Of a stretch of DNA of 64,000 bases, positions 7,696-58,438 are shown in pieces. The stretch is from an uncultured Bacteroidales bacterium. GTDB lineage: Bacteria; Bacteroidota; Bacteroidia; Bacteroidales; Paludibacteraceae. The stretch spans positions 290 to 64,289 of the forward strand of contig CACWNR010000009.1 in the NCBI GenBank assembly GCA_902762355.1, written 5' to 3'. The translations under genes and the position numbers were made by a program. The notes beneath the pieces are model-generated. The model did no database searches and had not been told where the DNA came from. It saw only the letters and a program-made list of their open reading frames with translations. Position 1 is the first letter of the stretch; each line of letters begins with the position of its first letter.

Positions 7696-7736
7696 TTAGG
7701 GTTCTAGGAGCCTAGGGATACTAGGAACCTAGTCAC
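7696..7736. repeat. tandem array, 8-mer CTAGGNNN x5
   Basis: ttagggtt ctaggagc ctagggata ctaggaac ctagtcac in the dnaK leader. Confidence 0.75.
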
Positions 7737-7763
7737 CCAAAGAATGACAAATACTATGCCACA

Positions 7764-7788
7764 TAAAAAAACCTGCCAATTTGGCAGG
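7764..7788 (-). terminator. rho-independent terminator of era
   Basis: Minus strand CCTGCCA-AAT-TGGCAGG followed by TTTTTTTAT, 3' of the era stop at 7826. Confidence 0.7.
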
Positions 7789-7825
7789 TCGAGAGGCTCG
7801 ACACCCGGATATTCCATGCGGCGTG

Positions 7826-8746
7826 TCATGTCAAATCGTAGCCGTAGTGCTTGAGGCGACCGGTGTTGGAGCGCCAATCGCGGTCCACTTTGACGTATAA
7901 TTGGAGGAAGACCTGTTTTTGGAAGAAGTCCTCTATCTCGCGGCGTGCCTGGCTCCCTACCCGCTTGAGGGCTGAGCCGGCTTTGCCGATGATGATGCCT
8001 TTTTGGCTATCGCGCTCGCAGTAGATAACCGCAGAGATACGAATGATCAGTTCTTCTTCAACGAACGACTCGACTTCCACTTCGACAGAGTACGGGATCT
8101 CTTTGTCGTAGTTCTGGAGGATCTTCTCGCGGATGATCTCGTTGACAAAGAACCGTTCGGACTTGTCGGTGAGTTGATCTTTGGGGAAGAACGGCGGTCC
8201 GACGGGAAGTGCCTCTTTGATGGCCTCGAAGAGTTGATCCACGCCAAAACGCTCTTGGGCAGAGATGGGGAAGATCTCAGCTTCCGGCAATTGAGCATGC
8301 CAGAAAGCAACGAGGTTCTCGAGGGTCTCCTGAGTCGTGAGGTCGATCTTATTTATTATAAGGAACACGCGCGTGCCTGAGGCTGCCATTCGCTTCACTT
8401 TCTCGAGGAAGTCGGCATTCCGTTCGGGGTTGTCTTGTACTTCGGTGACGTAGAGCAGCACATCGGCATCTACGAGGGCCGAGCGCGAGAACTCGAGCAT
8501 TTTCTCCTGCAAGCGATAATTAGGCGAAAGGACTCCCGGCGTGTCGGAATAGACCATCTGGAAGTCCTCGCCATTGACGATGCCCATGATACGGTGACGC
8601 GTGGTTTGCGCCTTGGATGTGATGATCGAGAGGCGCTCGCCAACGAGGGCGTTCATGAGCGTGGACTTGCCAACATTGGGGTTGCCCACAATGTTGACAA
8701 ATCCGCTTTTATGATTATTACATGATTGCGTCATAGAGCTCGTCAA
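7826..8746 (-). CDS. era: GTPase Era
   Basis: G1 motif GNPNVGKST, DTPG, NKID, and a C-terminal KH domain. Confidence 0.95.
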   Translation of the reverse strand: MTSSMTQSCNNHKSGFVNIVGNPNVGKSTLMNALVGERLSIITSKAQTTRHRIMGIVNGEDFQMVYSDTPGVLSPNYRLQEKMLEFSRSALVDADVLLYVTEVQDNPERNADFLEKVKRMAASGTRVFLIINKIDLTTQETLENLVAFWHAQLPEAEIFPISAQERFGVDQLFEAIKEALPVGPPFFPKDQLTDKSERFFVNEIIREKILQNYDKEIPYSVEVEVESFVEEELIIRISAVIYCERDSQKGIIIGKAGSALKRVGSQARREIEDFFQKQVFLQLYVKVDRDWRSNTGRLKHYGYDLT

Positions 8747-12676: not shown

Positions 12677-13867
12677 TTACTTTAATACAGCAAGTTTCGT
12701 GCCAATCTTCGTGAAGGCCGCGATACATTTGTCGAGTTGTTCGCGTGTGTGGGCTGCAGAAACCTGCACGCGGATACGTGCTTGGCCTTTCGGCACAACC
12801 GGATAATAGAAGCCCGTAACGTAGATGCCCTCTTTCTGCAGTTCGGCCGCAAACACCTGACTGAGTTTGGCGTCATAGAGCATCACGGCGCAGATAGCGG
12901 ACTGTGTGGGTTTGATATCGAAACCAGCCGCTTTCATCTTCTCTACGAAATACGCCGTGTTGGCATGGAGCCGATCCTGCAGTTCGTTGGAACGCGTGAG
13001 GATCTCGAAAGTCTTGATACCTGCCGCTGCAATCATCGGCGGGATCGAGTTCGAGAACAGATACGGACGCGAGCGCTGACGAAGGAGGTCGATGATCTCC
13101 TTGCGACCCGTAGTGAAACCGCCTACCGAGCCGCCAAACGCTTTGCCTAGCGTACCGGTAATAATCTCAATCTTACCGCGCATATCATACAGTTCTGTCA
13201 CACCATGTCCGGTCTTACCAACTACACCTGCGGAGTGCGACTCATCCACCATAACGAGTGCGTTGTACTTCTGCGCCAGTTCGTAGATCTTATCAAGCGG
13301 ACACACATTGCCGTCCATCGAGAAGACACCGTCGGTGGCGATGATACGGAAACGCTGTGCTTGCGCCTTTTTGAGTTGTTCCTCGAGGTCTGCCATATCG
13401 CCGTTCGCGTAGCGGTAACGCACAGCCTTGCAGAGGCGTACGCCATCGATGATCGATGCGTGGTTAAGGGCATCAGAGATAATGGCATCCTCTTCGGTCA
13501 ACAGCGGTTCAAACAAACCACCGTTCGCATCGAAGCATGCCGCATAGAGGATGGTATCTTCGGTACCGAAGAAGTCCGAAATAACACGCTCGAGCTCTTT
13601 GTGGGTATCCTGCGTTCCGCATATAAAACGTACGGAAGCCATGCCGTAACCACGCGCGTCCATGCGGGCTTTAGCAGCCTCGATGAGTTCCTTGTTATCG
13701 GCCAAGCCGAGGTAGTTGTTCGCACAGAAGTTGATCACTTCTTGCCCACCCTCTACGGCAATACCGGATGACTGCGGCGTGATAATCACGCGCTCGTTCT
13801 TATATAAACCTGCCTCCTTGATCTCATTCAAGGTCGATTGCAGATGTTTTTGAAAATCCTGATACAT
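12677..13867 (-). CDS. kbl: glycine C-acetyltransferase (2-amino-3-ketobutyrate CoA ligase)
   Basis: PLP aminotransferase class II, NFCANNYLGL.., adjacent to tdh. The ATG at 13867 is preferred over the TTG at 13876. Confidence 0.93.
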   Translation of the reverse strand: MYQDFQKHLQSTLNEIKEAGLYKNERVIITPQSSGIAVEGGQEVINFCANNYLGLADNKELIEAAKARMDARGYGMASVRFICGTQDTHKELERVISDFFGTEDTILYAACFDANGGLFEPLLTEEDAIISDALNHASIIDGVRLCKAVRYRYANGDMADLEEQLKKAQAQRFRIIATDGVFSMDGNVCPLDKIYELAQKYNALVMVDESHSAGVVGKTGHGVTELYDMRGKIEIITGTLGKAFGGSVGGFTTGRKEIIDLLRQRSRPYLFSNSIPPMIAAAGIKTFEILTRSNELQDRLHANTAYFVEKMKAAGFDIKPTQSAICAVMLYDAKLSQVFAAELQKEGIYVTGFYYPVVPKGQARIRVQVSAAHTREQLDKCIAAFTKIGTKLAVLK

Positions 13868-13871
13868 AATT

Positions 13872-13893
13872 ATCAATCATCAATCAAATGATC
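13872..13893. repeat. tandem array, 7-mer ATCAATC x2-3
   Basis: atcaatc atcaatc aaatgatc immediately upstream of the kbl ATG. Confidence 0.5.
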
Positions 13894-20755: not shown

Positions 20756-21410
20756 GCAGTTCTTCATTGAGGACAGTAAATGCGCCATGAAGGTAGGAAC
20801 CGATGGCGTACTTCTTGGTGCGTGGGCGCCTACAGGTTCACGTATTCTCGATGTCGGAACGGGTAGCGGGTTGATTGCACGCATGTTGATGCAACGCTGT
20901 CCGGAAGCCGAAGTGGAAGGCATTGATATTGACGAAGCTGCAGTAGAGCAGGCATGTGAGAATGGGGTAAAGGCTTTTTGTGCGAGACTGCAAGAATGGC
21001 AGGGCATGTACGACCTCATCGTTTCTAACCCACCCTATTTTCAGAATAGTCTTAAGAACCCCGATGAGGGAAGAAAGACCGCACGACATACCGATACACT
21101 GAGTTATGCAGAACTGATTCATCACAGTACTAGATTATTGACCATGCACGGTCAATTAGCCCTTATCCTGCCTGCTGAAGCGGAGAACGAAGTACGGCAA
21201 CTGGCTGCTGCAGAGGACCTCTTCCTCACGCACGTTACGCGCGTATTTAGTAAGGAGTCGAAGCCGGCGAGGCGGGTATTACTTTGCTTTGCAAAATTGG
21301 AAATTAGAGATTGGAAATTGGAGAGTTTGGAAGACACCCTTGTTTTAGAAGACGAAAAAGGAGGCCGAAGCCTCCCTTATCAAAATCTCTGTCGCGATTT
21401 CTATCTTTGA
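20739..21410 (+). CDS. tRNA (adenine37-N6)-methyltransferase (TrmN6/YfiC-like)
   Basis: SAM motif ILDVGTGSGLIA, catalytic NPPY, FKQF N-terminus. 17-nt overlap with the upstream gene. Confidence 0.8.
   Translation: MSFRFKQFFIEDSKCAMKVGTDGVLLGAWAPTGSRILDVGTGSGLIARMLMQRCPEAEVEGIDIDEAAVEQACENGVKAFCARLQEWQGMYDLIVSNPPYFQNSLKNPDEGRKTARHTDTLSYAELIHHSTRLLTMHGQLALILPAEAENEVRQLAAAEDLFLTHVTRVFSKESKPARRVLLCFAKLEIRDWKLESLEDTLVLEDEKGGRSLPYQNLCRDFYL
21294..21328. repeat. tandem array, 7-mer AAATTGG x4-5, inside the methyltransferase CDS
   Basis: aaattgg aaattag agattgg aaattgg agagttt, encoding KLEIRDWKLESL. Confidence 0.75.
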
Positions 21411-27900: not shown

Positions 27901-28319
27901 CGCAATTCCGCATAGGTTCGTACGATGGTGTTATTGATGACGAGAACAGTGTCATCACACTCAATGTAAAGGAAGAGGATAGCGAACTGATGAAGGCTGC
28001 TGAACCGGTGATTACACTGGCAAGTCCCATGACGTTTGTTACGCCGAACTCCGGTGAAGCGGTGAACTTCATAGAAGCGCCCTACGGTATTCGTTATACC
28101 GTCAGCGATTACGTCACCAAGCGCAATTACAATGTGATCGTTCGTCTCTATAACCCGCAAGGCATCGACAATATCGAGGTGGGTACGTGGTTGAACATCT
28201 TTGATGTATATGGTCGCAAGGTAGCTACCACGAATCAAGACATCCGCACAATGGATCTGCCGCACGGCATGTATATCGTCGTTACGGAGAGTGGTCAAAC
28301 GATTAAGATAATGCGATAA
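24954..28319 (+). CDS. large secreted Big_2 (bacterial Ig-like) domain protein with T9SS C-terminal sorting domain
   Basis: Signal peptide, two tandem Big_2 repeats ([13 protein letters not shown] / [13 protein letters not shown]), C-terminal ..[33 protein letters not shown] Por-tail pattern. Confidence 0.8.
25488..25997 (+). repeat. tandem duplication encoding two Big_2 domains
   Basis: aa 179-260 and 268-348 of the 1121-aa protein are clear paralogous repeats. Confidence 0.8.
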
Positions 28320-28322
28320 TGC
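28307..28322. repeat. 8-mer GATAATGC x2 spanning the stop/start overlap
   Basis: gataatgc gataatgc. The second copy carries the TAATG stop-start overlap of the Big_2 gene and queF. Confidence 0.7.
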
Positions 28323-28795
28323 GTACAGAGAAAGAATTGGAAGGCGTGACGCTCTTGGGTAACCAAGGCACACACTACAGCGATAACTACAACCCGGAGG
28401 TACTCGAGACCTTCGAGAACAAACACCCGGAGAACGAGTATCTGGTGACCTTCAATTGTCCTGAGTTCACGACCCTGTGTCCCAAGACCGGACAACCGGA
28501 TTTCGGGCATATCTATATCAGCTATATCCCGCGGGAACGGATGGTGGAGAGCAAGAGCCTCAAACTCTACCTCTTCTCCTTCCGCAATCACGGCGATTTT
28601 CACGAGGACTGCGTGAATATTATCATGAAGGATCTTGTCAAACTGATGGATCCCAAGTATCTCGAGGTCACCGGTTGGTTCATGCCCCGCGGCGGAATCA
28701 GCATCTATCCTTTCGCCAACTACGCAGACAAAGAGCACGAACAACTCAAGCAACAACGTCTGCGCGAGCAGTTTACGCTAAACATTAAACACTAA
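28319..28795 (+). CDS. queF: NADPH-dependent 7-cyano-7-deazaguanine reductase
   Basis: Type I QueF: [11 protein letters not shown] catalytic Cys region, [18 protein letters not shown]. Confidence 0.93.
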
Positions 28796-28808
28796 ACCTT
28801 CAACATTA

Positions 28809-29462
28809 ATGAAAGATAGTCTGATCGTTCTTTCCGGTGGTCTGGACTCGACCACGATGCTCTACGAGTATCAGTATCGTATCGGCATGGCGGTGTCGTT
28901 TCACTACGGCTCCAACCATAACGACCGCGAATTGGAATTCGCCAAGATGCATTGCGAACGACTCGGCATTCCTCATCTGGTCATTCGTTTGCCCTTCATC
29001 AAGCAGTTCTTTAAGTCTTCGCTCTTAGAAGGCGCAGACGCTATTCCCGAAGGCAATTATGACGATGAGAACATGAAATCAACCGTCGTTCCGTTCCGTA
29101 ACGGAATCATGTTGTCGATTGCCGCCGGTATCGCAGAGAACAATAAGATGCAGTATATCATGTTGGCCAACCATGCCGGTGACCACACAATCTACCCGGA
29201 TTGCCGACCGGAGTTCGTGGAGGCCATGAATAATGCCGTTCATTTCGGTACATGGAACGGCGTACAACTACTGACGCCGTATACCCACCTCACGAAGGCA
29301 GAGATAGCCGCAAAAGGCAAAGACCTCAACCTCGACTATTCCGAGACCTGGAGCTGCTACAAAGGAGGAGAACACCACTGCGGTGTGTGCGGCACGTGTC
29401 GCGAGCGCAAAGAGGCATTAGCACAGGCCGGCATAAAGGATACAACAATCTATGATTGTTAA
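28809..29462 (+). CDS. queC: 7-cyano-7-deazaguanine synthase
   Basis: SGGLDSTT PP-loop, C-terminal zinc cluster CGVCGTCRERKEA. Confidence 0.93.
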   Translation: MKDSLIVLSGGLDSTTMLYEYQYRIGMAVSFHYGSNHNDRELEFAKMHCERLGIPHLVIRLPFIKQFFKSSLLEGADAIPEGNYDDENMKSTVVPFRNGIMLSIAAGIAENNKMQYIMLANHAGDHTIYPDCRPEFVEAMNNAVHFGTWNGVQLLTPYTHLTKAEIAAKGKDLNLDYSETWSCYKGGEHHCGVCGTCRERKEALAQAGIKDTTIYDC

Positions 29463-29484
29463 TTGGTAATTGTTAATTGCTTAT
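29457..29484. repeat. tandem array, 7-mer TTGNTAA x4
   Basis: ttgttaa ttggtaa ttgttaa ttgctta between the queC stop and the queD ATG. Confidence 0.8.
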
Positions 29485-29488
29485 TGGG

Positions 29489-29821
29489 ATGTATTACGTA
29501 GAAAAACGAATAGAGATATCGGCGGCGCATAACTTAATGCTGTCGTACGAGAGCAAGTGCGAGAACCTGCATGGCCACAACTGGATCATCGTGGTGTATT
29601 GCCGCGCCAAAGAACTGAACGCGGATGGCATGGTGACCGACTTCACGCATATAAAGAAAGTAGTAAAGAACACTTTCGATCACAAATACATCAACGAGAT
29701 ACTGGACGTCAACCCGTCGGCGGAGAACATCGCACGCTGGATCTGCGACCATGTAGAGAACTGCTACAAAGTGAGCGTTCAGGAGAGCGAAGGAAATACC
29801 GCTATTTACGAGAAAGACTAG
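29489..29821 (+). CDS. queD: 6-carboxytetrahydropterin synthase
   Basis: PTPS fold motifs: SAAH, CENLHGHNW, FDHKYIN. The ATG at 29489 is preferred over the TTG at 29477. Confidence 0.9.
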   Translation: MYYVEKRIEISAAHNLMLSYESKCENLHGHNWIIVVYCRAKELNADGMVTDFTHIKKVVKNTFDHKYINEILDVNPSAENIARWICDHVENCYKVSVQESEGNTAIYEKD

Positions 29822-29850
29822 AACTCTAGAATTCTAGATTTCTAGATATC
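29818..29850. repeat. tandem array, 8-mer CTAGANNT x4
   Basis: ctagaact ctagaatt ctagattt ctagatat between the queD stop and the queE ATG. Confidence 0.85.
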
Positions 29851-29855
29851 TGGTA

Positions 29856-31042: not shown

Positions 31043-31070
31043 CGATTAGCGATTAGTAATTAACGATTAG
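31043..31070. repeat. tandem array, 7-mer CGATTAG x4
   Basis: cgattag cgattag taattaa cgattag between the tonB stop and the DJ-1 start. Confidence 0.8.
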
Positions 31071-31831
31071 TTGAATTTGAAATTATAGGTGATTGTTCCG
31101 ATCTGATCATGGTCGCCCTCGGTGAACTTCGCCTTCTTGGCGGCATCGAGTGCGAGTTGTTGGGTTTGCTTGTCGGAGATGTTACCGCCCTTGATCGTGG
31201 CGCTGATCACATTTCCTGCCGCATTGACGCGGATCTCAATGATGACGCGTCCTTCCTGGTTGAAGGTGTTTGCCGGTTGAGGCAAGGTCCCCCGAATACC
31301 ACGTCCGGAGAGGCTCCATGAGTTACCTCCCGATGAACCGTGTCCTACAGGATTACCTTTTTGTCCTGCTCCCTGCGTATCTCCTCCGCCGGCACTGGTT
31401 CCGTCTGTCTTACCGAACAGATTACCCATTTGCTGGGCTCTTGCGATCGCCTCCGCCTCTTTCTGCTTACGTGCCCGTTCGGCTGCCTCGCGTTCCTCTT
31501 TTTCTTTGCGCGCACGCTCGAGCGCTAAGGTCTCTTCTTCCGAGACGATATGCTCAGGAGGCGAAGCGGGCGTCGGGCTCGTTGCTATTTCCGGCGCAGG
31601 AGAAGCGGGCGCCGCTGGCGCTGCCTCAGAGGGCTCTTCCGCATAAGCTGCCGCTGCAGCCTCTGCCGGTTCCTCCAATTCCTCCACTTCCGCGAATTCT
31701 ATCTCCACGCCTTCTGCCTGCTCCGGGGCTACTGCATTGAGGCGAATCAGCCACAACAGCAGAAAGACCAGCAGCATAAACAAAACCGTGCCGATAGTCG
31801 CTATGGTATGTCGTTGTTGTTTCTTAGTCAC
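31067..31831 (-). CDS. tonB: energy transducer TonB
   Basis: N-terminal TM, Pro/Ala/Glu-rich spacer, C-terminal TonB domain. Follows exbB-exbD. Confidence 0.8.
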   Translation of the reverse strand: MTKKQQRHTIATIGTVLFMLLVFLLLWLIRLNAVAPEQAEGVEIEFAEVEELEEPAEAAAAAYAEEPSEAAPAAPASPAPEIATSPTPASPPEHIVSEEETLALERARKEKEEREAAERARKQKEAEAIARAQQMGNLFGKTDGTSAGGGDTQGAGQKGNPVGHGSSGGNSWSLSGRGIRGTLPQPANTFNQEGRVIIEIRVNAAGNVISATIKGGNISDKQTQQLALDAAKKAKFTEGDHDQIGTITYNFKFN

Positions 31832-43259: not shown

Positions 43260-44468
43260 TTAGTAGAACTTATGGGCGAAGCCGATAGAGAGTAACTCGC
43301 GGAACTGAATCTTCGCCTTCGTATCCCCCTCCAAAATAACGGAAGTATCGTATCTCGGGTGCAGCGTCAGGCGCGCCGAGAGCCATCGATTGATGATAAA
43401 ATCGCAGTTAACCTCGAGGTCTAATTCGACGTCGTGGTAATTGGTGTATAGATAGAACTTCGTCTCCAACGCCACCTCACGCACAGGTTTCCACAGATAC
43501 TCCACGCGCACGGACGAACCGATATTATGCTGGGTCCGCTGTCCTTCTTTCAAACCGAAATCGGTCGCTTTCACGCGCGCCGTGTCGGCTATATGAATAA
43601 CCTTGTAGGAGATCGGTGACACCGAGATAGAGAGGCCTTTGACGGGCTTGTAGTCAATACCGAAAGCCGCATTGAAACGGAAGGGCGAGAAGGGCGCAGA
43701 CTTCAGCTCCATCGAATTGGACTTATAGGTCGGGAACAATCGCGTGTCGATCTCCGCAGAGAGGGATGTAAACCATTTCGGCACGATTCGTAAGTTCGCT
43801 TTGGAGTAAATCTTAAACTGATCGTCCGTGGTATTCATCTTGTGCAAACTGTCCGCTGAGACCGTTGAACCGCCTATACGCCATTCGCCGAAATTCTCCC
43901 ATGTAAACCGCTCGCTGATGTAACTGATCTGACCTTTGGCGATGCCTAACGCAGCAAAAGAAGATGATCCGCCCTGATACCAGTTGTCGGTGACGTAGTT
44001 CTGCGTTATCTGCGCCATGAGCGTGGCTTCTCTACGCCAAGGCGAACGCATTTCGCGGATTGCACGGAGCACGTCATTGCGGTCTTCCACCTCATCCTTG
44101 ACCCATGATTTCTCAATAACGATCGTGGGTATGCGACTCATCGATTGCACTTCCAATGAGGCGTTCAAGGTACGCAACGAGTCCACTTCCCGCATTTCCC
44201 GTTCAATCGAATCGAGTCGCTGTAATTCCGCTAAAGTCAGCGTATCCACGGTATCGTTGGCATGGAGCATCTCCGCTTGCTGATTCACCAGATCCAACAG
44301 GTACGCGTCCATCGAAGCGGTGTTCTGCTGCTCCGCCAACTTGAACGTGTCCGTATAGACTTGTTGCGCTGCCAGATTAGTGACAGCGCAAACAATAAAT
44401 AATATGAGAATTTTTGATTTCAGATTTTTGATTTTTGATTTAAACGCCGGCTGCGCCGAGTTTGCCAT
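43260..44468 (-). CDS. DUF3078-like outer membrane protein
   Basis: NWYQGGSSS motif, terminal ..GFAHKFY. Start set at ATG 44468 ([24 protein letters not shown]..), which overlaps the secA 3' end by 29 nt. Confidence 0.6.
44412..44439. repeat. tandem array, 7-mer TTTTGAT x4
   Basis: ttttgat ttcagat ttttgat ttttgat abutting the secA stop. Encodes [11 protein letters not shown] on the minus strand. Confidence 0.85.
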
Positions 44469-47989: not shown

Positions 47990-48910
47990 ATGAAAAATAT
48001 AGCATTTATCATCAATCCCGTATCGGGGAGTAAGGAGACGCAAAACGCGAAGCGTAAGTTGCCGAAACTGATCATGCAGACGCTGGATGCGGAGCAGTGG
48101 TTGCCGAACATCGTGTTCACGGAGCGTCCGGGTCATGCTACAGAGATGGCGTACCAGTTTGCCCGCATGGGCTTTGACGCCGTGGTGGCTGTCGGCGGTG
48201 ACGGCACGGTGAATGAAGTAGCACGTGGCCTGGTGAAAGGGAATGGCCGCATGGCGAATGGCGAACGGGCTACTGCACTCGGCATCATCCCGATGGGTAG
48301 CGGAAACGGTTTTGCCCGTCACCTCAATATCCCCATCAAGCCGCAGAAGGCGCTGGAGATGATCAACCACAGCGAGCCTATCTCCGTGGACTACGGTTTG
48401 GCAAACGGCAAGCTGTTCGTCAGCACCTGTGGCACGGGTTTTGATGCCGTGATAGCAGATCATTTTGCGGGCAGTAACAAACGCGGGTTTGCGACCTATT
48501 TCCAGAATATCATCAAGGACGTGTTCTCGTATCACCCGCAGACCTATCATATCGTCGGCGACGGTTTGGACGTGACACACAAAGCCTTCCTGATCACGTT
48601 CGCCAATGCCAACCAATGGGGCTACGAAGCGATGATTGCGCCGAAAGCAAGTCTGCAGGATGGCAAGATGGATATTATGATGATGTCGAGCAACGCGCTG
48701 TTGGGTAGTGCGAGTCTGGCGTTACGTCTGTTCACGGGCAGCATCGATGACAGCCATTTCATGGACACAATCCGCGCGAAAGAAGTGACGCTCGAGCGCG
48801 AGGAGGCAGCGCCGTTCCATATTGACGGCGATCCCGTGGAGATGGAGAAAGATATACACATCAAAATCGTTGCCGACGGAATGCGCGTGCTTGTAGAAAA
48901 AAGATTCTAA
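47990..48910 (+). CDS. diacylglycerol-kinase-family lipid kinase (YegS-like)
   Basis: [21 protein letters not shown] motifs. Confidence 0.85.
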
Positions 48911-50189: not shown

Positions 50190-50730
50190 CATAGTATTGT
50201 TGCTGGCGGTACTGGTGCTGGTGGGCTGCGGAACAAAAAAGAAAATCACCAATCACCAATCACCAATCACCGATCAGGCTCCTGCCTGGCACACCTGCCT
50301 GATACAAGGAGCGAACGCGACCGTGAGCACAAATGAAGACCGTCTCAGCGCGAGTGTGACCATGCAGACCGTGCGGGACTCGATGCTCGTCATCAGCGTG
50401 ATGCCGTTGCTGGGCATGGAGATGATGAGGTTGGAGGCGACACCCACAGAGTTGATCGCGATCGATAAAATCCACGGCCGCTATGCCAAAGCAACGTTCG
50501 CGGACTTGAACCGTCGACTGACGCCGAGTCTTAACTGGGACATCCTGCAGCAACTATGCGCTGCGGAGTTACCCACGGGCAGCGAACGGGCGCGCCTATT
50601 ATACGCGTTCGGCAACGAGACCATCGAACTCGTGATCGACTACCCGCCACGCAGATTAGACGTACCGGTGCGCGTAAAGAACCAACCGCTCAAGAATTAC
50701 ACAGAAGTAGATATCAGTAAATGGCTATGA
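50173..50730 (+). CDS. DUF4292-like (LolB-like) lipoprotein
   Basis: Lipobox LVGCG; beta-rich body. Confidence 0.55.
   Translation: MKRLNNIVLLLAVLVLVGCGTKKKITNHQSPITDQAPAWHTCLIQGANATVSTNEDRLSASVTMQTVRDSMLVISVMPLLGMEMMRLEATPTELIAIDKIHGRYAKATFADLNRRLTPSLNWDILQQLCAAELPTGSERARLLYAFGNETIELVIDYPPRRLDVPVRVKNQPLKNYTEVDISKWL
50244..50271. repeat. perfect tandem array, 7-mer AATCACC x4, inside a CDS
   Basis: aatcacc x4 exact, directly after the lipobox codons. Encodes ITNHQSPIT. Confidence 0.9.
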
Positions 50731-51935
50731 TAAAGGTGAAAGGTGAAAGGATAAAGGTGAAAGGAGAAAGACTGCTCGTCTTTCTTATAGCCATGCTCCT
50801 CTGTCTCCCTGCCTTCGGCGAGAGTGTGAAGGACTTGCAGAAGAAGCAGAAAAAACTGCAGCAGGAGATCGAGCAAACGAACAAGATGCTCAAGCAGACG
50901 AAGAAAGACGAGAAGGCGACGCTCAATAAGTTGAATCTGATCGGTCAGAACATCAAGAATCAGAAACAACTCATTCGCACGCTGGACAACGAGATCACGG
51001 CACTCAACCGCGAGATGACGCAGTTGAGTAACACGCGTGACTCGTTACAGGTCGTGCTGGAGCGCTATAAAGCGGACTACGCTCAGATGGTTCGTCAGAG
51101 CCATTACGCCCGAATGCAACAATCGCCGTTATTGTTCCTGTTGAGCAGCGACAGTTTTCAGCAACTTGCCCGCCGTGCGCGGTACTTACAGGAGTTCGCA
51201 CATTTCCGTCAACAACAAGTGCGTCGTATAGAGAACACCCAGGCGGAGATCGACATACAGAACGATTTGTTGCAAGCCAATAAGGCTGACAAACAGACGG
51301 CTTTGAGTACGCGCAAACGTGAGCAGGAGAACCTCAAACGCGATGAGCGGAAGCAGCAGAACATGCTCAACCAACTCAAGTCCAAAGAGAAAGACCTGAG
51401 CAAGCAACTCAAGCAGAAACAGAAGAAAGTGGATGAACTGAACCGCAAGATCGATGAGATGGTTCGTAAGCAGACCGAGAAAGCGTCCAAGACCACGCTC
51501 ACCAAAGAGCAACAACTGATTGCCGGCGGATTCGAGGCCAACAAAGGACGGTTGCCGTGGCCGGTGGAGAAAGGCATGATCAGCGGACATTTCGGCAAGC
51601 AACAACACCCCGTTTATTCGCAAGTCGTGACGGACAACAAAGGTATCTACCTGCAGACTGTCGCCAATGCCAAGGCGCGTGCTGTCTATAAAGGCGAGGT
51701 GACAAGTTGTTTCATGGTGGCCGGCACGTACGCCGTAATCATCCAACACGGTAATTACCGTACCGTCTATTCGAACCTCAGCAAACTGAGTGTCAAGCAA
51801 GGCGACAAAGTAGAGACCAAACAAACCATCGGAACGATCTACACCGACGCCGAACAAGATCAGAAAACGGAACTCTATTTCCAAATATATCAAGACAGAA
51901 ACATTTTAAATCCTGAATTATGGATAGCAAAATAA
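50721..51935 (+). CDS. M23 peptidase-domain murein hydrolase activator (EnvC-like)
   Basis: Long coiled coil followed by a C-terminal M23/LytM domain (GIYLQT..VIIQHGNYRTVYSNL). Confidence 0.85.
   Translation: MAMIKVKGERIKVKGERLLVFLIAMLLCLPAFGESVKDLQKKQKKLQQEIEQTNKMLKQTKKDEKATLNKLNLIGQNIKNQKQLIRTLDNEITALNREMTQLSNTRDSLQVVLERYKADYAQMVRQSHYARMQQSPLLFLLSSDSFQQLARRARYLQEFAHFRQQQVRRIENTQAEIDIQNDLLQANKADKQTALSTRKREQENLKRDERKQQNMLNQLKSKEKDLSKQLKQKQKKVDELNRKIDEMVRKQTEKASKTTLTKEQQLIAGGFEANKGRLPWPVEKGMISGHFGKQQHPVYSQVVTDNKGIYLQTVANAKARAVYKGEVTSCFMVAGTYAVIIQHGNYRTVYSNLSKLSVKQGDKVETKQTIGTIYTDAEQDQKTELYFQIYQDRNILNPELWIAK
50732..50770. repeat. tandem array, 7-mer AAAGGTG x5
   Basis: aaaggtg aaaggtg aaaggat aaaggtg aaaggag at the stop/start junction. 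Encodes IKVKGERIKVKGER. Confidence 0.9.
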
Positions 51936-52486: not shown

Positions 52487-52488
52487 AG

Positions 52489-52983
52489 ATGAAAGGTTAT
52501 AGGTTAAAGGTTATAGGGGTTTGCCTTATGGCACTTATCCTCGCTTCCTGTGAAGACACCACGTTCCGTTCGAGTGTGCCTACCTACCCCGTGAATGTGG
52601 TGATCAACATGGATCTGGGGTCGTTTGTACATTTCCAAAATCAGGTGCAAGGCGAGCATATAGACGTGCTGCCAGACGGTTTTTATTACAATGACGAGTG
52701 GGTTCTTCCGCTCGGCACCAATGCCTGCGGGTACGGCGGCGTATTGGTATACGTGAGCGTGAACGGCTACGATGCCTATGACTTGGCTTGTCCTTATTGC
52801 GCGAGCAAAGGACACTGCTCCACCTGCATAATAGACGGCATGTTCGCTAAATGTACGGAGTGTGGCGAGGAGTACGACGTGGCGTCCGGAACCGCTGCAC
52901 CGCAGAATGGACTCATTCGTGAGACCCTCCGACGACTCAAAGTGATCCGTTCGGGTAACACACTAACCATCACACACCTATGA
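52489..52983 (+). CDS. Cys-rich lipoprotein (CxxC..CxxC, Rieske-like feel)
   Basis: Lipobox LILASC; CPYC and CTEC pairs. Confidence 0.5.
   Translation: MKGYRLKVIGVCLMALILASCEDTTFRSSVPTYPVNVVINMDLGSFVHFQNQVQGEHIDVLPDGFYYNDEWVLPLGTNACGYGGVLVYVSVNGYDAYDLACPYCASKGHCSTCIIDGMFAKCTECGEEYDVASGTAAPQNGLIRETLRRLKVIRSGNTLTITHL
52493..52520. repeat. tandem array, 7-mer WAGGTTA x4
   Basis: aaggtta taggtta aaggtta taggggt just after the ATG at 52489. Confidence 0.85.
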
Positions 52984-53366
52984 TAACAGCACAAGACCTC
53001 ATATCCATCGGAGTCCTCAAACGGACGCACTACAAAGACCTGCCGGAATTTGTTTTCGTACAGCGCGACGGTTTGTTCGTGCCCTTCCGCTCGGAGAACA
53101 TCGCCGACATCAAGGGCGAAGAAGGGTTTGTGTTACGAAGCGAGATACAGACGAACGAAGACGAGATGGCATGGGTGGATTTTGAAGGATGGACGCTGCA
53201 GGAAGGTGATCAGACGATAGGCAAGATCGTGCGCGTAGATGACAGCACGATGAATATTTTCGCAGAACTCGAAGACGGACGAATGATACCGTTGCACGAA
53301 GATTTCATTACCGAGATAGACGAAGATGCCAAGATTCTTCGCGTCCATTTACCGTTTGCGCTATGA
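52980..53366 (+). CDS. RimM-like PRC-barrel protein
   Basis: IGVLKRTH.. N-terminus and C-terminal G.IV.VDD....F.E...G..IPLHEDFI.EID...K.L.V.LP pattern. Short and divergent. Confidence 0.4.
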   Translation: MITAQDLISIGVLKRTHYKDLPEFVFVQRDGLFVPFRSENIADIKGEEGFVLRSEIQTNEDEMAWVDFEGWTLQEGDQTIGKIVRVDDSTMNIFAELEDGRMIPLHEDFITEIDEDAKILRVHLPFAL

Positions 53367-53926
53367 GTAAAAAACTGACCACAGCCGAGATGGGTCGCAT
53401 GAACGTGGACCAATACCGCGAGGCGGACAAACTGCCGCTGGTCGTGGTGCTCGATAACGTGCGCAGTCAGCATAACGTGGGTGCGGTCTTTCGCACCGCC
53501 GACGCCATGCGCATAGAACGCGTGGTGCTCTGCGGTATCTGTTGCTGCCCACCGAATCAGGAGATTCACAAGACCGCCCTCGGCGCCGAAGAATCCGTCG
53601 AATGGCAGTATTACAAAGAGACGCTCGATGCCGTCAAAGACCTACAGGCACAAGGTTATACCGTTTATGCCGTTGAGCAGGCCCATGACTCGATCACACT
53701 CGAAGAGGCGGCGGAACAAATGGTAAATGGTAAATGGTCAAATGGTAAATTGGCTGTGATACTCGGACACGAAGTGTTTGGAGTACAACAGGCCGTTGTA
53801 GATAACTGCAGTCAATGCATAGAGATACCCCAATACGGAACGAAGCACTCAATGAACGTGTCGGTAACGGCAGGCATTGTGATGTACCGCTTAGCCTCCT
53901 CGCTCCGGCTCGCGACAAAGAAGTAG
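53363..53926 (+). CDS. TrmH/SpoU-family RNA 2'-O-methyltransferase
   Basis: LDNVRSQHNVGAVFRTADA, ILGHEVFGV, SMNVSVTAGIVMY motifs. Confidence 0.85.
   Translation: MSKKLTTAEMGRMNVDQYREADKLPLVVVLDNVRSQHNVGAVFRTADAMRIERVVLCGICCCPPNQEIHKTALGAEESVEWQYYKETLDAVKDLQAQGYTVYAVEQAHDSITLEEAAEQMVNGKWSNGKLAVILGHEVFGVQQAVVDNCSQCIEIPQYGTKHSMNVSVTAGIVMYRLASSLRLATKK
53718..53753. repeat. tandem array, 7-mer AAATGGT x5, in-frame 36-nt block inside the TrmH-family methyltransferase gene
   Basis: aaatggt aaatggt aaatggt caaatggt aaattgg, encoding QMVNGKWSNGKL. Confidence 0.9.
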
Positions 53927-54681
53927 CCGTTGCGGCGATACAGGCCGGTGCGGACGCCATCTATATCGGTGCACCTGCTTACGGTGCGCGACAGGCGGCC
54001 GGCAACTCGCTGGAGGACTTGGCAGAAGTGGTTCGCTATGCTCACACCTACGGTGTACAGGTACTTGTCACACTCAACACCCTACTCCATGATGAGGAGT
54101 ACGCAGACGCGGTCGCGCTCGCGCACGCGTTATATAAAATAGGTGTCGATGCCCTTATCATTCAGGATCTGCACCTGCTCGATTGCGATCTTCCGCCTAT
54201 CCGTTTGCACGCTTCCACGCAATGCGACAACCGTACACCCGAACACGTAGCCCACCTGCTGGACTTGGGTTTCAAACGGGTCGTACTGGCACGCGAACTC
54301 AGTATTGACGAGATACGCGCTATCCATGAAGCCGTGCCCGATATCGAATTGGAGGCCTTCGTGCATGGCGCTTTGTGTGTTTCGTACTCGGGGCGGTGCT
54401 ATATATCCGAAGTACTCGCTAACCGCAGTGCCAACCGTGGGGCGTGTGCGCAGTTCTGCCGCATGGCGTACGATGTGTTGGACGAATCGATGAATGAGGT
54501 GTTGAACGATGCCGGTCAACCGATTCATCAGCAGCACGTGCTGTCCCTACAAGACCTGGATCGCTCGGCTTATCTGAACGAACTCATCGATGCCGGTGTG
54601 ACGACCTTCAAGATCGAAGGCCGCCTCAAAGATGCCGATTACGTGACCAATATCACAGCTTACTATCGCGAGAAATTGGAT

Positions 54682-54714
54682 TCCATCATCCCATCATTCC
54701 ACCATTCCATCATT
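54682..54714. repeat. tandem array, 8-mer CCATCATT x4 inside the U32 gene
   Basis: tccatcat cccatcat tccaccat tccatcat, encoding SIIPSFHHSII. Confidence 0.85.
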
Positions 54715-55123
54715 CGTTCCTTTGTTCCCGATCCGTCCAAGACGTTTCACCGTGGAGCCACCGATTATTTCCTTCATGGCCGCACACGTCCTATGGCCAA
54801 CTGGAACACCCCCAAATCAACCGGTGAGTACGTAGGTGAGGTACTTGAAGCCCGCGGAAACACCTTGCGCGTTCGCCTCAAAGAAGGCGTTGTGCTCCAT
54901 AACGGAGACGGTCTCACGATAGGCAGTGAAGGCTTCTCGGTCAACGGTGTGGAAGGAAATATCATCAAGATCAATAAAACTATCACCAATAACCCATCAC
55001 CGATAATCTTTGCCCCGCTATACCGCAATCTCGACACCGAGTTTACGAAGAATCTGCATAGCGAGCGGCGTATTCCCGTCGATATCGTCTTCCGCGAGAC
55101 CAAAGAAGGATTTGAGTTGGCTT

Positions 55124-55158
55124 ATCATTCTATCATCTCATCATTCCATCATTCATTC
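55124..55158. repeat. tandem array, 8-mer ATCATTCN x4 inside the U32 gene
   Basis: atcattct atcatctc atcattcc atcattca, encoding HSIISSFHHSF. Confidence 0.85.
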
Positions 55159-55489
55159 TCATATCCGCACGAACCGGCGAAGAATGAAGCGAAAGCACTC
55201 GATACGATCCGCACGCAGTTATCCAAATTGGGTGACACACCGTACATCGCCCGTGAGATAACGCTTGATACCAAGCCCTATTTCATACCCATTAGCATTT
55301 TGAACGAATGGAGACGCAATACGATCATCTGATGACTTGCCGCTACTGCCTGCTGTTCGAACTCGGGCACTGTAGAAAAACGGCTCCTTATCCGAGAGAT
55401 AAGGAACCGCGTTACTTGCGTCTGCGCACCGGTAAGATCTTGCGTCTTACCTTCGATTGCAAAAACTGTCAGATGTTAGTGGACGAAGC

Positions 55490-56387: not shown

Positions 56388-56419
56388 CACTTTTTTTTGC
56401 ATATATACAAATTTTTTAC

Positions 56420-56427
56420 TAAATTTG
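56420..56427 (+). promoter_or_regulatory. -7 box TAAATTTG
   Basis: TAAATTTGCAGCG about 11 nt upstream of the ATG at 56438. Confidence 0.5.
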
Positions 56428-56437
56428 CAGCGTGAAA

Positions 56438-57088
56438 ATGAAATTTTACATATTCATTCTCCTTTGCGGCATAGCCACCTCGGCTTTTGCAGAGGACAAA
56501 ATGGCTTACCTCGACCGCCGAAATGAAATCCGTATCGGCTGGGGCGACCAGCTCTTCGAGACGCTGATGTGGCATAAGCCATTATCGGTTGTACAAACGA
56601 TGCCCGCCACCTATGAGCAGGTCTATCACGAGAACTTCAAGTACTACCAGCATCTCTGGATCGAGTACCAATGGCGCTTCAACCACTGGTTCTCTCTGGG
56701 CGGTATGCTCGACGGTAGCGGCGTGAGTTGGGATAACGTGACCCGCAACGGCAAAGGACAAGAAGTTGCGAGACAAGGCGGAGAACATTTCTACAACCTC
56801 GTGATCATGCCGACCGTCCGCTTCACGTACTACCACCATGAGTACGTCAATCTCTTTTCCGGACTCGGTTTCGGTATGGATATCAACGGCGGAACGGAGA
56901 CGAACGCCAAGGGATGGCACACGGACGTAGGAGCGGCGGTTAACATCACCGTCTTCGGCGTCAGCGCTAACTACGACCGCTGGTTCGCCACAGTGGAGTT
57001 CGGTGGCTTATATGCCCTCAAGAATGCCAATACCATCTTCATGGCCAGTTCACGAATAATCAATGTCAGTATAGGTGCGCGGTTCTAA
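56438..57088 (+). CDS. small outer membrane beta-barrel protein
   Basis: Signal peptide, terminal ..SIGARF. Confidence 0.6.
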   Translation: MKFYIFILLCGIATSAFAEDKMAYLDRRNEIRIGWGDQLFETLMWHKPLSVVQTMPATYEQVYHENFKYYQHLWIEYQWRFNHWFSLGGMLDGSGVSWDNVTRNGKGQEVARQGGEHFYNLVIMPTVRFTYYHHEYVNLFSGLGFGMDINGGTETNAKGWHTDVGAAVNITVFGVSANYDRWFATVEFGGLYALKNANTIFMASSRIINVSIGARF

Positions 57089-58438
57089 ATGAAATCATAC
57101 ATTATACATCATACATCATACATCGTGCTATTGTTTACAATAGCACTCTCTTCTTGCCACTTCCGCGAGCAGGAGTTCGTGGACTTCGCCAATATCGAGG
57201 CGGCAAAGGGTTTATCCTTCAAGGTGATCGGGCAACATGAGACCAATCTTGAAGAAGGCCTGCCTACCAATTGTTACCTGCCCGACGGTAGCAGCGTGAA
57301 TGAGTGGTCGGAGGAGTCGGAAGAATCAACCGAATCCGCTAGCCCGGCTATCCGTAAGACCAGTAGTGTCACCGGTACAGCCATCGTGCAGGAGTTGCTT
57401 CGGTACGGTAACCAGTGTCACGTCACGGAGATAGCGGGTACCTACCCCAGCATCGATCTGAACTGGGACACGGTCATCCTCTCCGGTAAGGTCATGCTCC
57501 CCCGCGGACAACGTCCCAAACGACTCATCCTCGTCAGTCACTATACCGTTTGCTCCAATGCCGAAGCACCCTCTAACTGCTTCTCGCTCGAGGGTATTCT
57601 CGTCAAGCAAGGCTACGGTCTGATCATCCCCGATTACATGGGCTACGGCGTCACGGCGAATGAAGTGCACCCGTACCTCGTCATGGATCTCACGGCGCGG
57701 AACGTACTCGACATGTACCTCGCTGTCAAACCCTGGCTCAAAGCGGTCGACATGGAACCCGAGCACGATGAACTCATCCTCATGGGATATAGCCAGGGCG
57801 GCGCGAACACGATGGCGGTTGAGCACCTCATCGAGACCGAATACTGGGCAGACGAAGACCCCGATCAGATCAAGATCCACCGTGTCTTTGCCGGAGGTGG
57901 TCCGTATGATGTGAAGGCGACCTACGAGCGTTTCGTCAATACCGATACCGCCAGCTATCCGGTCGCTGTACCACTCGTTGTACAAGGCATGATCAAGGGC
58001 AACAACCTCAATATCGACATGCGCGATCTGATGCAGGATTGGCTCTACGACCACCTCGATGATTGGATCAACTCCAAGAAATACACCTCCGGTCAGATCA
58101 ATAAACTCATCGGCACCAAAGTGACGCATGAACTGCTCACGCCCAAAGCGCTGGATCAGACCTCGTGGGAGGTGTCGGAACTCCAGAAAGCCATGGTCGC
58201 TAACTCCATCACGTCCTTCAACTGGCTTCCGGAAGCAGCCATTTATATGTGCCATTCCATCGACGATGAGACCGTTCCATTTGCCAATGCCTCCAATGCC
58301 AAGGCCAAATGGCACATGGCGAATATAACCTATAACTTCGGCCATTACGGCGGACATGTCATGACCTGTCTCCGCTTTATCGGTTCCGTCCAAGAACTCC
58401 TCAAGCAGGAAGAGGAAGAAAGGAAGCAATATGAGTAA
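57089..58438 (+). CDS. alpha/beta-hydrolase lipoprotein (lipase-like)
   Basis: Lipobox ALSSC, nucleophile elbow GYSQGG, later D and H candidates (SIDDETVPF, GGH). Confidence 0.7.
   Translation: MKSYIIHHTSYIVLLFTIALSSCHFREQEFVDFANIEAAKGLSFKVIGQHETNLEEGLPTNCYLPDGSSVNEWSEESEESTESASPAIRKTSSVTGTAIVQELLRYGNQCHVTEIAGTYPSIDLNWDTVILSGKVMLPRGQRPKRLILVSHYTVCSNAEAPSNCFSLEGILVKQGYGLIIPDYMGYGVTANEVHPYLVMDLTARNVLDMYLAVKPWLKAVDMEPEHDELILMGYSQGGANTMAVEHLIETEYWADEDPDQIKIHRVFAGGGPYDVKATYERFVNTDTASYPVAVPLVVQGMIKGNNLNIDMRDLMQDWLYDHLDDWINSKKYTSGQINKLIGTKVTHELLTPKALDQTSWEVSELQKAMVANSITSFNWLPEAAIYMCHSIDDETVPFANASNAKAKWHMANITYNFGHYGGHVMTCLRFIGSVQELLKQEEEERKQYE
57094..57128. repeat. tandem array, 7-mer ATCATAC x5
   Basis: atcatac attatac atcatac atcatac atcgtgc right after the ATG at 57089. 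Encodes SYIIHHTSYI. Confidence 0.9.

Follow-up and report, generated by a model that had tools for sequence, protein, structure and literature searches.

Tandem arrays of 7- and 8-nt units, in excess across an uncultured Bacteroidales lineage, at gene junctions, in signal peptides and in-frame within housekeeping genes

What accounts for a stretch of bacterial DNA in which gene after gene is accompanied by a short, head-to-tail array of a 7- or 8-nt unit? The question is raised by 64,000 nt (the window) of an uncultured Bacteroidales bacterium of the Paludibacteraceae (GCA_902762355.1, contig CACWNR010000009.1, positions 290-64,289, forward), in which an initial annotation had listed 15 such arrays, had judged them too many and too biased in position to be due to chance, and had known of no mechanism or function for them. 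The arrays are set among ordinary housekeeping genes (dnaK, secA, queF/C/D/E, dUTPase, SpoU methylase, RimM-like, U32 and M23 peptidases, FKBP, RNase Y, others). Heptamers are the dominant unit length, and their excess is lineage-wide and not confined to one locus.

We detected arrays with Tandem Repeats Finder (TRF) and obtained the chance expectation for the window from 100 dinucleotide-preserving shuffles run with identical settings. The window holds 12 non-redundant period-7 arrays of at least 3 copies, against 0.08 expected and a shuffle maximum of 1, and three period-8 arrays, again against 0.08; periods 4-6 and 9-15 give 0-1 arrays each. Twelve of the 15 listed arrays are called at 3 or more copies (21294, 29455, 29818, 31043, 44410, 50244, 50732, 52494, 53718, 54680, 55123 and 57094), two fall short (13868 with 2.7 copies and 28307 with 2.1), one is not called by TRF at a score of 30 (7696), and three others had been overlooked (28779, 48241 and 62270). 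Independently of TRF, a count of perfect runs (2.5 copies or more) in the window and 80 related loci gives 266 at period 7, against 0 in shuffles, and 5-32 at periods 5, 6 and 8-11. These counts confirm that the observation is real, far beyond chance and specific to periods 7 and 8.

The related set was assembled by scanning species-representative genomes with the U32 peptidase of the window, which gave 80 loci (1.47 Mb, about 20 kb per genome; labels such as L045 denote individual loci). All come from metagenome-assembled genomes (MAGs) of uncultured rumen or gut Bacteroidales labelled Paludibacteraceae, the top match having 88% protein identity. A TRF census of these relatives, as the initial annotation had suggested, finds 548 arrays at period 7 and 101 at period 8, with 22 at period 6, 34 at period 9, 14 at period 10 and 36 at period 11. 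Averaged over the 74 related loci that reach 10 kb, density is about 4.4 arrays per 10 kb, and four distant relatives (L066, L069, L076 and L080) hold a single array in 78 kb in total. Over the same orthologous region, density ranges among relatives from 0 to 9.7 per 10 kb and is over-dispersed (chi-square 171, 73 degrees of freedom, p = 7e-10), with no relation to GC content. By extrapolation, and assuming a genome size of ~2.5 Mb, there would be roughly 1000 arrays per genome.

Are these arrays independent of one another? The initial annotation had described their units as locus-specific and the arrays as not being copies of one repeat, a description that holds within this window only; across the lineage, the vocabulary is shared. 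The 7-mer arrays occupy 148 of 1172 rotation/strand classes, where composition predicts 370, and the largest class, AAAGGTG, has 36 members against 9 expected. Pairs of the same class within a locus number 114, against 35 ± 6 when classes are permuted among genomes. Sharing falls with distance, from 11% below 0.5 kb (about sevenfold over the background of 1.5%) to 7-8% at 0.5-2 kb, 3.8% at 4-8 kb and 1.8% beyond 8 kb, yet each 20-kb locus holds several different units. It is more frequent within co-directional gene runs than across strand switches (7.0% vs 2.5%, p = 0.006). Paralogy is ruled out as the cause, as a flank of at least 10 nt is common to only 4 of 74 same-unit pairs; clustering by context is ruled out as well, with sharing of 6.6% vs 2.0% for in-gene arrays and 13.4% vs 2.2% for boundary arrays.

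Units are not all that neighbouring arrays share. Among 105 within-locus pairs with the same unit, 19 have at least 21 nt in common exactly, including an imperfection, where a random substitution model predicts 1.7 and the maximum in 300 simulations was 5. The variant AAAGTCA is present at nine of ten independent AAAGTCG sites, and irregular 30-36-mers are identical between different genes and between different genomes. The shared imperfections indicate that dispersed copies are related by descent, a pattern that gene conversion would also produce. The arrays have no conserved ends, terminal inverted repeats or target-site duplication.

We then asked where the arrays lie. Among 664 arrays, assigned to approximate classes, 308 fall between genes or straddle a gene boundary, 124 are within the first 30 codons of the called gene and 232 are deeper in genes, 9 of these last in the final 20 codons. 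Gene-boundary regions make up ~30% of the sequence and hold ~66% of the arrays, which bears out the positional bias noted from the window alone. The remaining arrays, as had also been noted, are in-frame inside conserved genes: at in-gene sites, orthologous alleles differ in length by multiples of 3 nt, and the arrays must therefore be translated. In the window itself, arrays occupy stop/start junctions (13868, 28307, 28779, 29455, 29818, 31043 and 44410), the first codons of secreted-protein or lipoprotein genes (50244, 50732, 52494 and 57094) and in-frame positions within conserved genes (48241, 53718, 54680, 55123 and 62270).

At boundaries, the arrays are poor in C on the sense strand (4-9%, vs 18% in array-free spacers), and frequent units contain TGA, TAA, TAG or ATG. 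For a closer view we used a separate set of 80 metagenome loci covering the three junctions of the que operon (queF|queC, queC|queD and queD|queE). At each of them, one extreme is genes that overlap or leave a minimal 4-nt spacer (GATTAgtg, TAAGatg), and the other is arrays, which are made of many different units. The real upstream stop codon is repeated at +7/+8, at least twice, in 48 of 121 que spacers, vs 2-3.5% in shuffles, and stops cover all three frames in 65% of que spacers vs 33% of shuffles. Units are also strand-specific relative to the gene, with 34 sense and 2 antisense instances of AAAGGTG and a ratio of 15:0 for AAAGTCG.

In secreted proteins and lipoproteins, the signal peptide itself is made of array (in the window at 50732, 52494 and 57094). 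The charged n-region derives from A-rich units, as where AAAGGTG yields KVKGER, and the hydrophobic h-region from T-rich units, CCTTTGT yielding LVLCPL and ATTCCTT yielding LIPYSL. N-terminal coding arrays show a 21-nt super-period. Growth in 21-nt steps only was considered for coding arrays in general; it finds support in N-terminal ones and none in internal ones. The median length of TRF-detected arrays is 31-32 nt in every context, which is at least partly a detection effect. A fixed insertion size of ~31 nt was dropped, given that the TRF score threshold shapes the short side of the distribution and that perfect-run lengths fall monotonically, and a +27-nt peak in allele differences proved to be a product of counting the same sites repeatedly.

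Flank anchoring groups 658 arrays into 327 sites, and the 36 sites with at least three arrays have on average 8.8 arrays and 5.6 different unit classes. Across species, the same orthologous position may hold different heptamers, no insert, or a hairpin resembling a repetitive extragenic palindrome (REP) or a 16-mer repeat. Turnover extends to strains, represented by 20 loci that two exact-protein look-ups retrieved from other samples and assemblers; three of these (L082, L089 and L091) are virtually identical to the window, and the others are 95.1-97.5% identical. In answer to the comparison of orthologous junctions that the initial annotation had called for, whole arrays are present or absent among strains: that at 50732 is missing in four, that at 29818 in seven and the 16-mer at 51939 in seven. 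Elsewhere one array replaces another (ATCATAC by AAATATC at 57094, TAATTGG by AATGATG at 29455, a 16-mer by AAAGGTG at 58439). At several such sites one flank diverges more than the remaining locus does, which suggests that diverged alleles were exchanged by homologous recombination. Between relatives, lengths also change by whole units: +7 nt in L001, +14 nt in L103 and L106, and a 21-nt block in L045. Among 39 array-less or shorter alleles, the exact unit is found in 6 (1.2% in controls) and a one-mismatch unit in 5 more (12.7% in controls).

Taken together, we give about an even chance to the account in which short-range copying or conversion spreads a lineage-wide excess of heptamer/octamer repeats, slippage makes the arrays grow and selection filters them. 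Seeding would take two routes. In the first, a local 7-8-mer, typically the one with the stop codon of the junction, would be duplicated in tandem; in the second, an array within a few kb would be copied over a short range or transferred by gene conversion, a step that is likely template switching primed by a microhomology of a few bases, such as a stop codon. We propose that it is because of such copying or conversion that neighbours share units and imperfections but no flanks. Arrays would then grow or shrink as replication slippage gains or loses one or more units, and in coding sequence only changes by multiples of 3 nt would survive. Selection would spare arrays only at harmless places. 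Arrays that follow a stop would have units carrying that stop, so that termination could occur in any frame; arrays before or around start codons would be tolerated; arrays in signal peptides would fit the local composition of an A-rich n-region and a T-rich h-region; and arrays in surface loops of enzymes would remain in-frame. The junction bias, stop-bearing units, in-frame lengths, strand bias and match to n- and h-regions could all arise because selection retains harmless arrays only. We infer from these patterns that copying proceeds by template switching, with an enzyme to match, that slippage sets the 7-nt period and that the arrays have no function of their own.

Several points weigh against this account. 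It gives no reason for a period of 7 in place of 6 or 9, and the idea of a polymerase footprint is taken from the literature. Gene conversion, the import of diverged alleles or a dedicated enzyme could equally yield shared imperfections, and some shared variants may be mutational hot spots or selected: the change from GTCGAAA to GTCAAAA is a CpG transition, and AAAGGTT avoids an in-frame TGA. Permuting unit order has a small effect, the longest shared substring being 15.9 nt vs 15.3 nt. With that effect so weak, we make no claim of arrays invariably moving as entire blocks and use the shared-imperfection test instead. In 28 of the 39 array-less or shorter alleles nothing exceeds the control, and local duplication alone is insufficient. 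Most relatives retain some array at each que junction, and a homologous CTAG-N4 array is kept at queD|queE across 84-97% identity in QueC, so a function there is possible. Finally, gene calls come from a self-trained open reading frame (ORF) caller (91% coding), and the N-terminal and boundary classes are therefore approximate.

A possible, though unlikely, alternative is that a dedicated process, restricted to the lineage, copies or writes ~30-nt heptamer-periodic tracts to sites a few kb away without transposon-like ends. Such a process might need no more than a few bases, for instance those of a stop codon, as its anchor and might be gained and lost among close species; its agent might be an integrase, a template-switching polymerase or a reverse transcriptase that uses operon transcripts as template. 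If true, it would constantly remodel gene junctions, signal peptides and protein loops genome-wide. In the version in which the arrays are ~30-nt non-autonomous mini-elements moved in trans by a lineage-specific enzyme (again a template-switching polymerase, reverse transcriptase or integrase), much like the very small dispersed repeats of cyanobacteria or the in-frame palindromic elements of Rickettsia, we regard copy-and-paste as unlikely. The identical imperfect 30-36-mers at unrelated sites and in different genomes would be its expected trace, and density differs sharply between close relatives, as it would for a gained and lost determinant; a REP-like hairpin, a 16-mer family and ~47-nt inserts in arrays target the same sites. 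Speaking against it, there are no terminal inverted repeats, target-site duplications or conserved ends, dozens of unit families would need a sequence-independent enzyme for which no candidate gene has been identified, and copy number changes unit by unit, so that ordinary slippage must act too.

Could slippage suffice without any transfer between sites? If each array had grown in situ from a local 7-8-mer by machinery that slips in 7-nt steps, one would expect the 7-, 14- and 21-nt steps in copy number seen between relatives, the proto-units found at 11 of the 39 sites and the period-14 and period-21 super-structure of some arrays, and heptamer excess has been explained in this way in print, as a hypothesis (Mrázek et al., 2007, as summarized in PMC4679880). 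It leaves unexplained, however, the restricted vocabulary and its distance-dependent, flank-free reuse, as well as the identical imperfect 21-33-mers at unrelated sites of one genome; and at gene overlaps such as GATTAGTG, nothing local could have supplied the bases of the unit that lie outside the stop. We therefore hold it rather improbable that slippage acted alone.

It seems to us more doubtful still that the junction arrays are cis-elements of the mRNA, either a single-stranded platform for RNA-binding proteins (S1, cold-shock or CsrA-like) or three-frame stop insulators that uncouple or tune the translation of neighbouring cistrons in a host that seldom relies on Shine-Dalgarno pairing. 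The strong sense orientation, the three-frame stops phased on the real stop codon, the retention of some array at each que junction in most relatives and the concentration of sharing in co-directional runs would suit such a role, which MacGregor (2015; PMC4679880) proposed for TAACTGA repeats. But one third of the arrays are in-frame in genes and others encode signal peptides; close relatives and strains manage array-free with overlapping genes; dozens of unrelated units would require one very tolerant binder; and a tolerance filter alone would leave the same orientation and stop content. Arrays are no less structured than shuffled sequence, so a role as unstructured leaders finds no support. 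The same three observations (arrays in genes, relatives with overlapping genes, ordinary structure) leave unsupported the leader generation in a host without Shine-Dalgarno pairing that the initial annotation had entertained.

Contingency loci, hypermutable tracts that switch genes by frameshift in phase variation, are a very improbable explanation. As in such loci, the unit length is not divisible by 3, and 5' ends, here of genes for surface or secreted proteins, are where many of the arrays are found. We found, however, no ±1-unit differences among strains at 16 heptamer/octamer sites compared in 7-10 strain loci each (7-9 diverged strains each), so the copy-number heterogeneity that had been proposed as a check did not materialize. 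Arrays gain point changes at about the rate of their flanks; in-gene lengths are always in-frame and ORFs stay open; and the arrays are short and imperfect, with mostly housekeeping hosts (secA, queCDEF, SpoU, U32 peptidase, dnaK). Hypermutable tracts are thereby rejected at the scale of strains. Every genome here is a MAG or metagenome contig, but an assembly or binning artefact is ruled out for practical purposes by identical arrays in independent assemblies from different samples and assemblers (contig types NODE_, k141_/k119_, scaffold and NCBI GCA; Logan contigs) and by ORFs that stay open across arrays in multiples of 3. Identical arrays in independent assemblies, together with the lack of ±1-unit change, therefore exclude both artefact and contingency-type hypermutability on this timescale.

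How does this lineage compare with repeat-rich genomes already described? Mrázek et al. (2007; PNAS 104:8472), as reported in PMC4679880 and PMC4692102, found an excess of long simple sequence repeats (LSSRs) with 5-11-nt units, heptamers most abundant, in some prokaryotes, and proposed slippage tied to the length of DNA held by the polymerase; units that are multiples of 3 were likeliest within coding regions (via PMC4679880). As far as these two summaries go, an excess of this kind with a slippage hypothesis was already in print, contrary to the view that no mechanism had been described, and they name no mechanism beyond the proposed polymerase slippage. This lineage has the features that define a heptamer-rich LSSR genome: excess, heptamer dominance, lineage-wide occurrence and length change by whole units. 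Like the LSSR5-11 genomes as they are summarized there, it has arrays far above expectation at many loci and with many units, a sporadic taxonomic distribution and no evidence of phase variation. It differs in being a new lineage (uncultured rumen Bacteroidales) with ~4.4 arrays per 10 kb; in having one third of its 7/8-nt arrays in-frame in housekeeping genes, while others form signal peptides; and in the short-range reuse of units with shared imperfections, copying between sites being absent from the summaries in PMC4679880 and PMC4692102.

Closer in position are the TAACTGA repeats of MacGregor (2015; PMC4679880), which come in sets of 2-6, either immediately 5' of a start codon or overlying the preceding stop, in Beggiatoaceae, Cyanobacteria and five Bacteroidetes including Paludibacter propionicigenes. 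Because they put a stop in every frame, only the ends of ORFs tolerate them, and they were proposed to bind S1, Csp or CsrA (PMC4679880); heptamer repeats at start codons, in Bacteroidetes too, were thus already in print. Both systems show forward orientation, start/stop placement, three-frame stops and occasional in-gene copies, and for neither is the mechanism known. The TAACTGA system has one heptamer, whereas here there are ~150 unit classes, in-frame in-gene arrays and evidence of turnover and neighbour copying. Direct repeats of TAACTGA or its reverse complement in at least 2 copies are absent from the window and the 80 related loci (1.5 Mb), and membership of that family is ruled out by the absence of the unit.

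Mazel is said to have described, in 1990, the heptamers of cyanobacterial short tandemly repeated repetitive (STRR) sequences. Rehm (2015; PMC4692102) describes a GGGAATC repeat in Xanthomonas and a GGGGA(C/T)T repeat in Nostoc. In all three, as may hold here, one heptamer is reiterated at many intergenic loci of a genome; as here, length and sequence at a given intergenic position vary between related species. They are G-rich and prone to form G-quadruplexes, with one or a few units per genome, whereas the arrays of this lineage are A/T-rich, poor in sense-strand C and of many families. Elhai reportedly described very small dispersed repeats in cyanobacteria (2008), and Ogata, palindromic elements of Rickettsia (RPEs) inserted in-frame in genes (2000). 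Such elements resemble the arrays as tiny non-coding sequences at many sites, including in-frame positions in conserved proteins. Unlike them, the arrays have no palindromic ends or fixed sequence and have a 7-nt tandem interior; the separate hairpin and 16-mer elements of this lineage are closer to those families than the arrays are. The common element sequence and inverted-repeat or hairpin ends of REPs, miniature inverted-repeat transposable elements (MITEs) and RPEs are lacking in the arrays, as is the organization of clustered regularly interspaced short palindromic repeats (CRISPRs), with 23-50-nt repeats and unique spacers; the array units are 7-8 nt, head-to-tail and spacer-free. Rfam covariance models gave no match at gathering score anywhere in the window.

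In the literature searched, we found no description of heptamer repeats in this rumen lineage. Against the published cases covered here, what differs is the ~150 unit families, the large in-frame coding fraction, the signal peptides built from repeats and the evidence for copying to nearby sites. Heptanucleotide repeat excess in scattered prokaryotes has been noted since ~1990 and was quantified in 2007, and its cause is still unexplained. The density, coding inserts and short-range copying seen here would surprise a specialist, and so extreme a case could help to find that cause. The lineage offers hundreds of public MAGs whose array density runs from 0 to ~10 per 10 kb over the same genes among close relatives; such variation, and sites with both array-bearing and array-free alleles, make a gene-association search and a site-by-site reconstruction feasible. 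The process is also a mutational one that feeds protein evolution, with whole signal peptides and enzyme loops built from 7-nt repeats. In practice, arrays move start codons and change ORF lengths between strains and so mislead gene callers.

The que operon gives the most detailed record of junction arrays in the window. At queF|queC, TAAACAT is repeated 4.4 times (28779..28809, plus strand, TRF), with TAA in all three frames and the third TAA serving as the queF stop; L103 (QueC 99% identical) and L106 (97%) are two units longer there. At queC|queD, TAATTGG/TAATTGT is repeated 4.7 times (29455..29487, plus strand, TRF) in units that start with the queC stop; an AATGATG array of equal length takes its place in strain L100 and in the relatives L103 and L111, and other relatives have just TAAGatg. 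At queD|queE, an octamer of the type CTAGAATT is repeated four times (29818..29851, plus strand, TRF) and is built on the queD stop TAG, where seven strains, 95-97.5% identical, have the two genes overlapping array-free as GATTAGTG. Duplication at junctions, which the initial annotation had put forward as local slippage, is well illustrated here, both by an array built on the TAG of a TAG/GTG overlap that is intact in seven strains and by a gain of two units between relatives 97-99% identical in QueC.

The octamer arrays of the CTAG-N4 type form a class of their own. Their N4 is often self-complementary (GATC, AATT, ATAT or GGCC), which makes the array partly its own reverse complement, and among relatives whose QueC is 84-97% identical the N4 drifts and the TAG core mostly persists. 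They occur in the window at 7696-7732 and 29818-29851, at queD|queE in L106, L108, L119, L126, L133 and L176-L178, and at queC|queD in L165. The array at 7696..7732 (minus strand), which shares this architecture with that at 29818, is the weakest member of the inventory; read by eye, it has a degenerate CTAGG core every 8-9 nt, four to five times, and lies 35-70 nt upstream of dnaK (5743-7662, minus strand).

Of the other junction arrays, that at 13868..13886 (minus strand) has 2.7 TRF copies of AATCATC (sense TGATTGA), which place stops TGA/TGA/TAA across three frames a few nt upstream of an ATG, between a glutamate dehydrogenase gene (13929-15272) and an aminotransferase gene (12677-13876). 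The array at 28307..28323 (plus strand; GATAATGC, 2.1 TRF copies) is a duplicated TAATG stop/start overlap between the gene for a Big_2 protein and queF, unchanged in nine strain loci. CGATTAG (sense CTAATCG, which contains TAA) is repeated four times at 31043..31071 (minus strand, TRF), between a TonB_C gene (31067-31831) and a DJ-1/PfpI gene (30511-31038); its unit number is constant in eight strain loci, L100 having a 1-nt deletion. Directly 3' of the secA stop and before a DUF3078 gene, ATTTTTG (sense CAAAAAT) is repeated 4.6 times (44410..44441, minus strand, TRF), and six of ten strain loci have a different junction there that is 16 nt shorter.

Among the arrays in first codons, that at 50244..50276 (AATCACC, 4.7 copies, plus strand, TRF) lies in-frame just past the lipobox Cys of a DUF4292 lipoprotein (50173-50730); its length is constant in ten strain loci, six of which carry a point change to AATCACA. 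At 50732..50770 (plus strand, TRF), 5.6 copies of AAAGGTG with a 21-nt super-period encode the charged n-region MIKVKGERIKVKGER of the signal peptide of an M23 peptidase and are followed by an 8-bp inverted repeat, AGAAAGAC-TGCTC-GTCTTTCT; the four of ten strain loci that lack the whole array encode MAIKRNIF, and the additional 21-nt block of L045 is at this site. AGGTTAT is repeated 3.4 times at 52494..52517 (plus strand, TRF) in the n-region of a lipoprotein (gene 52465-52983), where the extra unit of L001 moves the start codon into the array and L002 has a single proto-copy. ATCATAC is repeated 4.4 times at 57094..57124 (plus strand, TRF) in the n-region of a secreted protein of the LIP family (57089-58438), followed by a 9-bp inverted repeat, GTGCTATTG-TTTA-CAATAGCAC; the AAATATC array replaces it in five of ten strain loci.

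The A-rich n-region and T-rich h-region arrays are often near reverse complements of each other around a small palindrome (GACTAATCnTATTAGTC; TGAAAGG...CCTTTCA), as at 50732-50815 and 57094-57160 in the window and in L005 (7755 and 15679), L009 (7003), L032 (7018), L010 (17932) and L006 (3866). In L005, two different lipoprotein genes 8 kb apart have ~65 nt of signal-peptide DNA in common. An inverted copy of at least 10 nt lies within 60 nt of an array in 2.3% of cases vs 0.4%, an enrichment; such copies are too rare for fold-back (quasi-palindrome) copying to be the main source of arrays.

Deeper in genes, AAATTGG is repeated 4.1 times at 21294..21324 (plus strand, TRF; period 14 fits better) within the 3' part of a methyltransferase ORF (20739-21410), and strains ~96.5% identical hold AGATTTG units at this position. 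GAATGGC is repeated 3.4 times at 48241..48265 (plus strand, TRF), in-frame within a diacylglycerol-kinase-like (DAGK-like) gene (47972-48910). Orthologues have either no insert (28 nt between anchors) or 46-61 nt made of GTGAAAG, CAGCCGT, GGTTACG or GTCGAAA units, all length differences being multiples of 3. AAATGGT, with a 15-nt super-period, is repeated 4.6 times at 53718..53750 (plus strand, TRF), in-frame within the SpoU methylase gene (53363-53926). Its orthologues either lack an insert, with 45 nt between anchors, or have one, mostly of 27 nt, that is made of other units sharing the in-phase core AAAT. Two arrays with an identical unit lie in-frame 443 nt apart in the U32 peptidase gene: ATTCCATC, 4.5 copies, at 54680..54715, and (T/C)ATCATTC, four copies, at 55123..55156 in the DUF3656 part (both plus strand, TRF). 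The spot orthologous to 54680 is occupied elsewhere by other arrays, a REP-like hairpin or a 16-mer repeat. CCTGTAA (sense TTACAGG) is repeated 3.9 times at 62270..62296 (minus strand, TRF), in-frame in a 553-aa ORF (60963-62624); in its orthologues the region keeps its length, and the repeat is visible only in L001 and L030.

Other small elements share these sites. A dispersed 16-24-nt family, GTCTAACAGCGAAGCG (reverse complement GACCGCTTCGCTGTTAGAC), often followed by AAAGACA heptamers and found in either orientation, occupies heptamer-type sites (gene starts, signal-peptide n-regions and in-frame loops) and is present or absent among strains. We saw it in the window at 51939-51975 and 58439-58480 and in L006, L013, L017, L019, L009, L016 and L033. 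The first of the two window copies is a 16-mer repeat, TACAGCRAAGCGGTCT (2.3 copies, plus strand, TRF), at the start of the FKBP gene, with the same family at other sites in L006, L013 and L017; the second is a 16/17-mer repeat, GTCTAACAGCGAAAGCG (2.5 copies, plus strand, TRF), at the start of a 315-aa ORF, and gives way to the AAAGGTG array in four strain loci. A REP-like palindromic insert of 30-50 nt (e.g. CCCATCTCCCTCCCTTGAGGGGAGGGATGGGGAGAGG or CTCTCCCCTTGTGGGGAGAG), which resembles the in-frame palindromic elements of Rickettsia, lies in-frame in the U32 peptidase gene and in junctions; it is found at the sites orthologous to 54680/55123 in L008, L009, L012, L013, L020, L022 and L032 and at queF|queC in L126, L128, L131, L133, L134 and L136.

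The queC|queD junction holds, besides, a conserved element that begins TAATTAAAAACCTCTTCGGCAAAGAGGGGTCCCC and ends GATTGCCGAACGCG, with long and short forms (133-137 nt in L117, L122 and L144, 64 nt in L135 and 36 nt in L157), which may represent either a miniature mobile element or a small RNA with structure. In L150, a ~47-nt insert occurs twice within a TGAGAGT array, and there are unique inserts at queC|queD and queD|queE; in L128, queC|queD has a central unique segment between arrays in inverted orientation. Arrays may be targets for other small elements.

Two local features of the window stand apart from the arrays. Between 34100 and 39300, GC is 0.40-0.46, vs ~0.51 elsewhere. This low-GC island encodes an IS110-family transposase (34541-35536) and an HNH_3 protein (37421-38215) besides unannotated ORFs, and it contains a TA-rich tract (34100-34125) and 3.8 copies of an 11-mer, GTCGCTTCACC (34187-34227); other strains have genes for a leucine-rich repeat (LRR) protein and a YoeB toxin in its place. 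The longest U32 peptidase ORF (53815-55332) overlaps the SpoU gene (53363-53926) by 112 nt, and gene calls on the strain loci alternate: some give a peptidase of 505 aa and no SpoU gene, others SpoU together with a peptidase of 434 aa. The true start is probably that of the shorter form.

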